Virus record (IMG/VR): IMGVR_UViG_3300025156_000428
Strand: one strand, 5' to 3'
Source: a virus
Length of the DNA: 39,641 bases
The position numbers and the translations under genes are program-made. Of the stretch, positions 1,317-3,531 are shown in pieces. Within the stretch, counting starts at the first letter, position 1; the number at the start of each line of letters is the position of its first letter. A model generated the notes under the pieces. The model saw nothing but the letters and a program-made list of their open reading frames with translations. It was not told the origin of the DNA and ran no database searches.

Positions 1317-1580
1317 TCACAAACTCTCAACTGCCTCAATCATATCAATCAATGCGAGTGCCTCTCCTGCTTTGTTGAGAAATAGCTCATTGAAGAATGG
1401 AATTGCTCTCTTTTCATCAGAGAGCCTTTTGAGAATGGAGGCAGTAATGCGCAAACGATGATGCAGAATTTTCAGTGCTGTTTTCTTTCCTTCATATCGC
1501 AGAATATGACGGATGTATGGATGCAGTTCTGTGACTGTGGTGAGATAACCACTCAAGATGAAAACAATTTCATTTTCCAT
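1317..1580 (-). CDS. Hypothetical protein, 87 aa
   Basis: ORF track; plausible amphipathic helical composition; on the genome's coding strand. Confidence 0.55.
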   Translation of the reverse strand: MENEIVFILSGYLTTVTELHPYIRHILRYEGKKTALKILHHRLRITASILKRLSDEKRAIPFFNELFLNKAGEALALIDMIEAVESL

Positions 1581-1607
1581 AATTCATCACTTTTTGGAAT
1601 TATTCAA

Positions 1608-1644
1608 AACAAAGAAATAGGAAAAAATAAAAGGGAAGAGGAAA
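1608..1644 (-). terminator. T-rich archaeal-type terminator after the basic-protein operon
   Basis: Minus strand reads TTTCCTCTTCCCTTTATTTTTTCCTATTTCTTTGTTT directly after the stop at 1645. Confidence 0.5.
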
Positions 1645-2031
1645 TTAGGCAACATTCATTGCTGTTGGCTCAACATCTGTCGTTCTGACAAATATCTTCA
1701 CTCTCCGAGCATCTCGTGGCAGCTCAACAATTTTTGTGTTTGTCACAGTTGCTCTTGACACTCTATATCGTGTTCTGCCTCTCCTTGCGGTGAATGCTCT
1801 GCGTGGATTTTCGTATGTGATTTTCAATCCATACACTCTTCTCCCAAATCGGTTTGTGAATCTTCCTCTCTCAATTTTTGTCACTGTCCCTGAAACATAC
1901 ACTCTCTTGACATGAGGTTTCCATCTCACCTTTCCTCCTCTTACTCTGTCTCTGCTTTCATAATAGACAAAAAGAGCTCTTGTTTTGCCTCTGTATTTTG
2001 CTGTTGTTGGTCTATATTTCATTTCATACAC
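1645..2031 (-). CDS. Very basic Arg-rich beta-strand protein, putative nucleic-acid binding, 128 aa
   Basis: GGAGGTG RBS; overlaps the upstream stop; R/K-rich (KRVYVSG...RFTNRFGRRVYG...TARRGRTRYRVSRA). Confidence 0.75.
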   Translation of the reverse strand: MYEMKYRPTTAKYRGKTRALFVYYESRDRVRGGKVRWKPHVKRVYVSGTVTKIERGRFTNRFGRRVYGLKITYENPRRAFTARRGRTRYRVSRATVTNTKIVELPRDARRVKIFVRTTDVEPTAMNVA

Positions 2032-2428
2032 CTCCCTTCAGATCACTTCTGTTCTGACGATATTCATAATACACCTTTCCACTTCTGCTGCTTCTTTTGC
2101 CAGGTGACAGTGCTTTTAGTTTCTTGTCTCGTGCAAGGTTTTTGCTTTTTCCTGTCTGGCGCTGAGCTGGTTTGATTGTTTTTCCAGTCTTTTTTCCTTT
2201 CTTTCTTTTGCTTCTTTTAACTGTTTTTCTGACATTTCTTTTATTTGTTTCTCTCAGAAAATCTTTGATGACTTTGATTTTTGTTCTTTCATATATGTTT
2301 AGAGGTGCTCTTTTTGCAATTCTTTCTAACTCTGCTCTTGTTAATCGTTTGATGAGCTGCTTTCCATGAAATTCACCAAGCTTCTCTGGAGGAATTTTCA
2401 TCAGTTCTTTTGTTGTTGTCATTTTCAC
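2024..2428 (-). CDS. Very basic Lys-rich protein, putative DNA-condensing, 134 aa
   Basis: KRSKRKKGKKTGK tract and C-terminal RDKKLKALSPGKRSSRSGKVYYEYRQNRSD; coupled to its neighbours. Confidence 0.75.
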   Translation of the reverse strand: MKMTTTKELMKIPPEKLGEFHGKQLIKRLTRAELERIAKRAPLNIYERTKIKVIKDFLRETNKRNVRKTVKRSKRKKGKKTGKTIKPAQRQTGKSKNLARDKKLKALSPGKRSSRSGKVYYEYRQNRSDLKGGV

Positions 2429-2748
2429 CCAATTCTCTCATCATACTTCTTTCCACTGATGCCCAATTTCTCCAATTGTCTGTTGGCTACTCTCGCTGTC
2501 TTTGCATATTCTCTCTTTGCAGCACTTCTCATCTTTGTCAGCTTTCCTCTGAATGCATTTCTCCATGCAGGAGAGAAGGTGAGAGTGTAGAGGTATAGGG
2601 AGCGGCGGACAAGCTCAGTGATTCTGGCTCTGGTCTTTGCTCTCTTGATTTGCTCTCTGATATGACAGTTGATTGCTCTGATGTCTTTGATAGATTCAAC
2701 TGTACCATAGATGTGGTGTTTACTCCTTTTCAAGACAGGACACTTCAT
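2425..2748 (-). CDS. Basic alpha-helical protein, putative DNA-binding, ~107 aa
   Basis: GGAGGTGA RBS upstream of ATG 2748; R/K-rich helices. Confidence 0.75.
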   Translation of the reverse strand: MKCPVLKRSKHHIYGTVESIKDIRAINCHIREQIKRAKTRARITELVRRSLYLYTLTFSPAWRNAFRGKLTKMRSAAKREYAKTARVANRQLEKLGISGKKYDERIG

Positions 2749-2753
2749 AAGAA

Positions 2754-2831
2754 TCACCTCCTTCTTCTTACTCTTCTTGTTCTCTTCTTCCTACCACCCC
2801 TCCTTCTTCTTGTTCTTTTTCTTCTTGCCAT
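2754..2831 (-). CDS. Protamine-like 25-aa peptide MARRKRTRRRRGGRKKRTRRVRRRR (absent from ORF track)
   Basis: Hand-translated ATG(2831) to TGA(2754); preceded by GGAGGTGAGAAA; its last codons and stop form the RBS of the next gene; 18 of 25 residues are R/K. Confidence 0.8.
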   Translation of the reverse strand: MARRKRTRRRRGGRKKRTRRVRRRR

Positions 2832-2835
2832 TTTC

Positions 2836-2967
2836 TCACCTCCTTTTTCTCTTTGATTTTGGTGAGATGAGGTAGCGTTTACATACAGGGCATTCCTTTG
2901 GCTTCTCCACTCTTGGCATCCATTCATACCCGCAGTGCGGGCATCTCACGCGCCTCATTTTCATCAT
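2836..2967 (-). CDS. Small C4 zinc-finger protein, 43 aa (absent from ORF track)
   Basis: Hand translation MMKMRRVRCPHCGYEWMPRVEKPKECPVCKRYLISPKSKRKRR; CxxC-x13-CxxC pattern typical of small archaeal virus zinc fingers. Confidence 0.8.
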   Translation of the reverse strand: MMKMRRVRCPHCGYEWMPRVEKPKECPVCKRYLISPKSKRKRR

Positions 2968-2980
2968 CCTCCATTTGTCA

Positions 2981-3010
2981 TTATTATATTAATAATATTA
3001 TATAATTATC
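2981..3010 (-). promoter_or_regulatory. AT-only promoter/operator region for the basic-protein operon
   Basis: Minus strand GATAATTATATAATATTATTAATATAATAA with a TATA-like TTATATA about 35 nt upstream of the first ATG. Confidence 0.55.
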
Positions 3011-3119
3011 TCCCCCCAACAAAACCTCACGCATAAATGGACATAGACAAACAAAATGAGAGGGGGAAGTGTTGGGATACTTGACAGGCAAGTTTTGTTT
3101 GTTCTCGTTGATTTCTACG

Positions 3120-3320
3120 TTAGTCAATTGGGATGCCCACTTTCTGTTCTATGACTTCAATGGTCTTTCTCACACCTTGCACGAGATTGCCTCTGCCTCG
3201 TCGCCAGCGGAAGATCACCTTTCCTGTTTCCTCGTCTCGGATGACAACCTCAATTGAGTATGGCACATTTGCCTTTTCCAACACTTCTTCAATTTCCTCT
3301 CTTCTCATTTTCATTTCCAT
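3120..3320 (-). CDS. Hypothetical protein, 66 aa
   Basis: ORF track; GAGGTGA RBS; charged composition. Confidence 0.65.
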   Translation of the reverse strand: MEMKMRREEIEEVLEKANVPYSIEVVIRDEETGKVIFRWRRGRGNLVQGVRKTIEVIEQKVGIPID

Positions 3321-3327
3321 TTTCTCA

Positions 3328-3531
3328 TCACCTCAGAAGTGAGACAATACCAACTATCACCATCACAAAGAACAGTAATACAGCAACATAAGGCAGCACT
3401 GTTGTGAGAGCAGGAATTGTCGCAGAAACATTTGTTGTGGTTGTTGGTATCTCTTCCCATCCTGCTGAAAGGAAGAAGACTGCCATTGCTGCTATTATTA
3501 CCAATATTAGTGCACTAATCATGTTCATCAC
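3328..3531 (-). CDS. Small two-TM protein, capsid-like hairpin (putative minor virion protein)
   Basis: Two hydrophobic helices separated by a Thr-rich loop PTTTTNVS that contains an N-glycosylation sequon. Confidence 0.7.
   Translation of the reverse strand: MMNMISALILVIIAAMAVFFLSAGWEEIPTTTTNVSATIPALTTVLPYVAVLLFFVMVIVGIVSLLR

Follow-up and report, generated by a model that had tools for sequence, protein, structure and literature searches.

A 25-codon open reading frame encoding an arginine- and lysine-rich peptide on the minus strand of a viral metagenome contig (positions 2754-2831) is very probably a real gene. Its sequence, its outlier composition, five distinct homologous ORFs, the pN/pS ratio of its reading frame and an alignment broken by a single 54-nt gap identify it as a core-less short form of a family of small basic proteins resembling gp11 of Methanophagales virus PBV082. 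The reading that we favor, held tentatively, is that it is a translated small gene, the second cistron of an operon of basic proteins and a derivative produced by a 54-nt deletion, and that its product may act as an accessory nucleic-acid-binding polycation that aids DNA compaction.

The window analyzed here is the whole 39,641-nt metagenome contig. Its long ORFs all lie on the minus strand and include genes for a family B DNA polymerase, a primase, an RFC-like clamp loader, NrdD and an XPD-like helicase. We assign the contig, from its gene content and homologies, to a relative of PBV082 (Itzamnaviridae), a virus of ANME-1 archaea. PBV082 is the type of the genus Pletoitzamnavirus, is predicted to be spindle-shaped and to infect ANME-1 hosts, and has a genome divided into a 'structural arm' and an 'enzymatic arm'; the paper describing it makes no mention of basic or DNA-binding proteins (PMC9894754). 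With reference to this arm layout, the peptide gene is located where the structural half of the genome ends, and the other products of its operon are also very basic. No terminal direct repeat and no tRNA were found in the window. Deposited phage and archaeal-virus records yielded no match to 12 kb of sequence (megablast) or to the 107-aa protein encoded next to the peptide (tblastn), and IMG/VR scans with that protein and its alignment returned no relatives.

The ORF runs from an ATG at 2831-2829 to a TGA at 2756-2754 and comprises 25 codons plus the stop. Its product, MARRKRTRRRRGGRKKRTRRVRRRR, of about 3.3 kDa, contains 15 arginines and 3 lysines in 25 residues (72% R/K). A previous sequence-only reading of the contig had given the same coordinates and peptide sequence, and re-reading the window confirmed them. 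The perfect ribosome binding site claimed in that reading is also present, in the form of a Shine-Dalgarno-type site, GGAGGTGA, at 2836-2843 on the minus strand, separated from the ATG by the four bases GAAA. The TGA inside this site is the stop codon of the upstream 43-aa Zn-ribbon ORF, and in our synteny listing nearly all relatives carry GGAGGTGA similarly placed ahead of the homologous gene. A second copy of GGAGGTGA at 2754-2761 (minus strand) is formed by the last two arginine codons of the peptide and its stop, and serves the next gene, whose ATG at 2748 follows after five bases. The coupling to the next gene that had been proposed is therefore visible in the sequence on both sides of the peptide, at the Zn-ribbon stop and at the ATG at 2748. 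The two copies of GGAGGTGA constitute direct repeats 82 nt apart that flank the peptide ORF.

The composition of the peptide sets it apart from everything else encoded in the window. Among 2528 start-to-stop readings of at least 20 aa in the six frames, the peptide ORF has the highest K/R fraction, 0.72, followed by a runner-up at 0.43, and it alone contains a 25-residue stretch with at least 60% K/R. The tract encoding it is 90% purine and a second frame is open as well, so that an open frame by itself is weak evidence for a gene. The ORF had been described as missed by ORF calling, and the called proteins on record for this contig indeed lack the 25-aa product; a cluster look-up showed that these records include the 107-aa neighbor and do not include the 25-aa, 57-aa or Zn-ribbon products.

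We considered several other readings of the same region. A 57-aa reading that starts at the ATG at 2927, and that was called by gene callers in two relatives (P0043, P0045), was rejected, as it runs out of frame across the conserved Zn-ribbon gene and its extension is broken at locus L014. There the upstream extension is out of frame with the peptide, whose start is GTG, and comparison among the loci thus identifies the 25-codon reading, not the 57-aa reading, as the conserved one. A read-through or frameshift fusion with the Zn-ribbon protein was rejected because the spacing differs between short forms (4 and 5 nt) and long forms (6 nt), and also because a second in-frame stop is present in some relatives. 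The F/L-rich ORFs that run antisense, on the plus strand (2650-2856 and 2711-2875) are the complement of the purine tract across three conserved genes and were likewise discarded.

The Zn-ribbon gene (2836-2967, minus strand) is the first gene in the operon of small basic proteins. Its product of 40-43 aa carries the motif CPHC...CPVC and a basic tail ending in KRKRR, and has weak Zn-ribbon matches in Pfam. The gene is conserved upstream of the slot occupied by the peptide gene in most loci whose sequence extends that far. Three in-frame ATGs directly follow a GGAGG in this gene (window 2956-2972, minus strand). The third, at 2958, is likely the true start, giving a protein of 40 rather than 43 aa, given the spacing and the comparison with L014 and L095. 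Further upstream, an A+T-only stretch read from the sequence (2980-3009, minus strand) is likely to be an archaeal TATA-type promoter of the operon.

Downstream of the peptide and coupled to it is the gene for the 107-aa protein (2425-2748, minus strand), which homologues, alignment and an AlphaFold2 model describe as a basic helical protein conserved in all relatives. It has 42 homologues, PBV082 among them, and its model consists of four helices (pLDDT 89), for which Foldseek found no fold match below E 0.001 in PDB or BFVD. The protein has invariant Cys3, His12 and Cys28 near its N-terminus, a possible metal site. Antisense to this gene, at 2651-2720 on the plus strand, lies a weak C/D-box snoRNA-like Rfam match (23.5 bits against a gathering threshold of 48, E 0.09) that is most likely due to chance. 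No recognizable DNA-binding fold was found in any operon neighbor in Pfam, PHROG and Foldseek searches.

In order to determine what related viruses encode at this position, we assembled a synteny sample of 13 loci obtained by exact protein look-up and 80 loci obtained by a metagenome scan with the alignment of the 107-aa family, and listed the content of the slot between the Zn-ribbon gene and the gene of 107-110 aa. About 70 related metagenome loci contain a conserved gene of 35-43 aa directly after the Zn-ribbon stop and behind GGAGGTGA, representing 41 distinct proteins with the consensus MARRRRKxxRRTKMSEIMSKVARGxRLTRxEREYLKRRR. The copy in PBV082 is 38 aa long and is annotated as hypothetical protein gp11 (YP_010772768.1). 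The layout of this gp11-like family is an Arg-rich arm followed by a helix-loop-helix and an RRR tail. In the family core I, M, K, G, L, T and REYL are invariant. The 26-codon core is represented by 48 distinct DNA versions, with 13, 12 and 23 variable positions at codon sites 1, 2 and 3, respectively, and a pN/pS of 0.27, from which we conclude that the gene of 35-43 aa is real and under purifying selection. AlphaFold2, run with the family alignment, modeled residues 1-12 of the long form as disordered and residues 13-23 and 29-38 as helices (mean pLDDT 82).

Variants of this gene occur in some loci. Tandem two-unit versions occupy the slot at L068:1252-1485 and L085:268-513, while at L030:1347-1483 a frame break splits the gp11-like gene into ORFs of 19 and 26 aa, by either decay or sequencing error. 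A profile search of 1.84 billion representatives recovered 22 relatives of the family (proteins P0046-P0067), none of which contains a named domain in Pfam or PHROG. The majority are small and contain one or two 'IMSKVxxGxxLT' helical units bordered by Lys/Arg tails. A few are longer: the helix-loop-helix unit 'IMSKVxxGxxLTxxE' makes up the C-terminal portion of proteins of 181-348 aa, and it recurs in a 474-aa protein whose gene lies among the head genes of a 157-kb tailed-virus contig (L097), six genes downstream of that for the portal.

Searches for known relatives of these proteins were negative. neither the peptide, the long form and the tandem forms nor the other slot genes and operon proteins had a usable match in Pfam, PHROG or PDB sequences; the model of the long form had no Foldseek match below E 0.001 in PDB or BFVD; and ESM Atlas look-ups gave no usable match. 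The core of the long forms bears some likeness to the actin-binding WH2 motif (IMEKVRKGKKLTK, e.g. L004:2882-2992), which we rejected as a candidate, since the lone PDB profile match was to Spire at E 0.64 and the long forms match no Pfam family. The likeness is probably due to chance, arising from an amphipathic helix plus G..LKK.

The 25-aa form is limited to a sub-lineage in which the 107-aa protein is 88-93% identical to that of the window; the cluster look-up points to additional 107-aa proteins from this sub-lineage on contigs of 1-7 kb. It is found in five distinct DNA sequences (the window, L014, L095/L096, L010/L015 and L094) and in two gene contexts, one consisting of the Zn-ribbon gene, the peptide gene and the 107-aa gene, and the other of the Zn-ribbon gene, the peptide gene, a 121-aa gene and a 109-aa gene. 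The sequence-only reading had proposed looking for an in-frame Arg-rich ORF at the syntenic locus of related viruses, and such an ORF exists: the 25-aa ORF itself in the four other sequences of the sub-lineage, and a longer homologue starting with MARR(R/K) in the wider set of about 70 loci.

The peptide gene shares most features of the gp11-like family. It follows the Zn-ribbon stop, with GGAGGTGA and 4-7 nt preceding an ATG or GTG start; it encodes the N-terminal M-A-R-R arm, which is rich in Arg/Lys and comprises 9-17 residues across the family, and the DNA of this arm aligns with that of the 43-aa form; and it ends with the C-terminal RRR and the stop that form the GGAGGTGA of the next gene. 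Absent from the peptide is the helix-loop-helix core. In the DNA alignment, the short form corresponds to the 43-aa variant through the Arg-rich arm, lacks one 54-nt in-frame block of 18 codons, and rejoins it at the RRR-stop. The missing block is the helix-loop-helix core (IMSKVxxGxxLTxxEREYL). This indicates that the short form is a core-less derivative of the longer gene rather than an independent invention, and, since the core is absent, a truncated derivative rather than a full member of the gp11-like family.

Additional small genes, of no named function, make the slot a hot spot. These encode proteins of 93 aa (L007-L009, L066-L067), 87 aa (L030, L034, L045, L062, L077, L091), 84 aa (L061) and 121 aa (L010, L011, L094). 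Basic tails are found on several of them, and depending on the locus they occur beside the gp11-like gene or in its place. Nearly every slot gene ends with Arg-Arg-stop spelled AGGAGGTGA, so that its C-terminal residues double as the ribosome binding site of the next gene. Such junctions are located at 2836-2845 and 2754-2763 (minus strand) in the window and are alike in L001-L096, and as a result each small gene is flanked by direct repeats of 8-10 nt.

A comparison of two loci illustrates how the peptide gene can be lost. L011 and L010 share 99.1% identity in the Zn-ribbon gene, 99.7% in the 121-aa gene and 96.1% in the 109-aa gene, and precisely the 82 nt that separate the two GGAGGTGA repeats are missing from L011, whose Zn-ribbon stop thus serves the next gene directly. 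The absence of the ORF despite near-identical flanks indicates that the peptide gene is not essential and is accessory. Because the difference between the two loci is an exact 82-nt deletion between repeats, it suggests that slot cassettes are gained and lost by recombination at the Arg-Arg-stop junctions.

These observations could be taken to mean that the ORF is a relic, in which function was lost with the deletion and the 25 codons are kept for the two ribosome binding sites and for handing ribosomes on, by translational coupling, from the Zn-ribbon gene to that of the 107-aa protein, the peptide itself being inert. The short form is missing the conserved folded core, the GGAGGTGA signals of the adjacent genes determine where the ORF begins and ends, L011 lost the ORF with no other change, and a stretch of 90% purine with a second open frame stays open easily. 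We nevertheless regard this explanation as unlikely. A pure spacer is unnecessary, as the L011 locus demonstrates that the Zn-ribbon stop can directly serve the next gene, and in L014 a start codon (GTG) is retained for the peptide, whereas the out-of-frame extension upstream of it is disrupted. The five short-form sequences contain no indels, although the length of the homologous arm varies among the long forms.

The pattern of substitution in the short forms also speaks against a relic. The peptide ORF is 86-97% identical in nucleotide sequence among the five short forms, similar to the flanking genes, and 14 sites vary. Seven of these are at codon position 3, all synonymous; three are at position 2, all Arg/Lys exchanges; and four are at position 1 (ATG/GTG, T/A, G/S and T/S). 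At the 18 R/K codons there are 0, 3 and 6 A/G transitions at positions 1, 2 and 3, respectively, and in these nine transitions no basic residue is lost. A change between A and G at position 1 of these codons would give Arg to Gly or Lys to Glu, and the chance of finding zero position-1 changes among nine is about 0.026 for the count on five short forms. The Nei-Gojobori pN/pS summed over pairs of these five sequences, with 14 variable sites, is 0.18 in the peptide frame, whereas the two other frames give 1.42 and 0.51; the changes follow a codon pattern that only the Arg/Lys frame shows. Within this small sample of five sequences, the codon pattern favors translation and selection for charge. 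Together with the ribosome binding site, the coupling and the syntenic homologues, this fits the original impression that the ORF looks like a real gene. The GG hinge that had been pointed out in the peptide, on the other hand, is not conserved, and SG occupies its place in the four other short forms.

Under the reading that we favor, the peptide would be an accessory polycation derived from a folded ancestor. The ancestor was a 35-43 aa protein of the PBV082 gp11 type, with a disordered Arg-rich arm, a helix-loop-helix and an RRR tail, from which a single in-frame 54-nt deletion took out the folded core; arm and tail remain as a polycation of 25 residues, 18 of them with basic side chains. 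Ribosomes would arrive via the GGAGGTGA that closes the Zn-ribbon gene, and the last codons of the peptide provide the next gene with the same site. The peptide would most likely bind nucleic acid non-specifically, through electrostatic interactions, and as one of several basic proteins from this operon it would help to neutralize and compact viral DNA as an accessory, not an essential, factor. We infer this mechanism of DNA binding and compaction from composition, disorder and genomic context, and translation of the peptide, its binding to DNA and any presence in the virion are to be read in the same way. The wider family, which likewise joins helical units with basic tails, supports this reading. 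A genome of at least 39.6 kb could be fully neutralized only by about 4400 copies of the peptide, each carrying 18 charges; given this number, the peptide could be only one contributor.

The strictly conserved folded core of the ancestral family argues for a specific partner over generic charge, and this is the part that the short form lost. A specific regulator has to be considered, namely an arginine-rich-motif peptide comparable to lambda N or to the lentiviral Tat and Rev arms, which would bind a given RNA hairpin or DNA site and control viral or host gene expression instead of packing DNA. Arginine-rich motifs match the peptide in size and composition, the gene is co-transcribed with that of the Zn-ribbon protein, and the helix-loop-helix conserved in the long-form relatives is fit for specific recognition. 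The deleted part, however, is the likeliest source of such specificity. In addition, the non-basic positions drift (T/A, G/S, T/S), which fits constraint on composition rather than on specific sequence, and no cognate RNA element was found, an Rfam scan of positions 1500-3500 giving one weak, sub-threshold match of chance level on the other strand. This role is quite improbable for the short form.

It is very unlikely that the polycation is directed at the host, where it would target ribosomes, chromatin or the envelope in the course of shut-off, counter-defense or lysis. Arg-rich peptides are generally able to bind nucleic acids and membranes, and the variable cassettes of the slot are typical of accessory genes for host interaction. 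Nothing specific favors this role, no defense-family match was found in the Pfam and PHROG scans, and the peptide gene sits among conserved genes adjoining the structural half of the genome. Finally, it is hardly credible that the purine-rich tract goes untranslated and exerts its effect as RNA or DNA (an unstructured standby region for ribosomes would be one example), the open frame being incidental: stops are rare in purine runs and gene callers report no 25-aa ORF on this contig, but the start and ribosome binding site lie at the position used by the clearly coding homologue in about 70 loci, and an RNA-level purine tract would not be expected to change with the three-base periodicity observed in the short form.

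The accessory-polycation reading bears on how DNA is organized inside the hydrophobic, expandable capsid of spindle-shaped archaeal viruses, which is poorly understood. The patchy and dispensable VP2 of SSV1 is the only described virus-encoded candidate for this role. The analysis delineates, in the Itzamnaviridae of ANME-1 archaea, a conserved and unnamed family of very small basic proteins, one lineage of which appears to keep under selection a 25-residue, 72% Arg/Lys remnant that is a concrete and synthesizable candidate for DNA binding or condensation. The peptide also provides an example of a functional micro-gene overlooked by gene callers on this contig, and the 'Arg-Arg-stop' junctions show how small genes may come and go as cassettes. 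If the peptide is inert, the locus still shows a coupled operon that tolerates the decay of one cistron.

In comparison with known systems, the closest homologue of the peptide, as judged from alignment and synteny, is PBV082 gp11. Together with its relatives of 35-43 aa, gp11 shares with the peptide the slot between the Zn-ribbon gene and the gene of 107-110 aa, the start consisting of GGAGGTGA and ATG, the MARR(R/K) arm and the RRR-stop tail that doubles as the ribosome binding site of the next gene, and the genes can be aligned at the DNA level. The difference lies in the 18 codons of the family-invariant helix-loop-helix core, which the peptide of the window lacks. Similar length and charge density are found in the arginine-rich-motif peptides of lambda N, Tat and Rev and in the 25-aa ribosomal protein eL41, which also bind nucleic acid; unlike the general binding proposed here, those recognize defined RNA structures or sit in the ribosome.

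Among spindle-shaped archaeal viruses, the closest functional analogue would be VP2 of SSV1. VP2 is about three times longer than the peptide and is not almost pure Arg/Lys. Basic, DNA-binding and located in the virion, it occurs patchily among relatives and is dispensable on deletion, and the host protein Sso7d is also found in the virion (PMC3367457, PMC9608457). Both VP2 and the peptide are small basic proteins of spindle-shaped archaeal viruses, VP2 is thought to aid DNA packaging, and its patchiness parallels the loss of the peptide gene in L011. In contrast to the peptide, which is known here from sequence alone, VP2 belongs to a crenarchaeal virus and has a proven location in the virion. 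The sequence-only reading knew of no protamine-type peptide described in such viruses; our full-text literature searches found no paper describing one in an archaeal virus, but VP2 was already known as a basic DNA-binding protein of their virions.

Protamines and protamine-like viral core proteins, such as fish protamines, baculovirus P6.9, adenovirus VII and Mu, are very short and unstructured, consist of 60-70% clustered Arg, and condense DNA electrostatically (PMC12159748, PMC6163548). The likeness claimed for the peptide holds for composition, with 15 R in 25 residues, for its very short length and for the modeled disorder of the homologous arm. It does not extend to a family match, as no Pfam family was found at E up to 10 and no PDB chain was matched, and the low complexity of the peptide makes homology hard to test. 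Differences include the lack of phosphorylatable Ser clusters in the peptide, its archaeal host and its origin by deletion from a folded protein. Adenovirus Mu/pVII differs further, in that the peptide has its own start codon and no Gly-Gly precursor processing, GG being present in the window alone. It is doubtful that ANME-1 spindle-shaped viruses package their DNA with polycations of their own, and that one lineage, by deleting the core of a helical DNA-binding protein, has cut such a protein down to a 25-residue peptide with 18 basic residues as a convergent counterpart of protamine and Mu. If virus-encoded packaging of this kind is true, prokaryotic viruses would have their first example of a genome-condensing peptide of the protamine type. 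A protamine-like, DNA-condensing role of the peptide itself is plausible in view of its composition and context.
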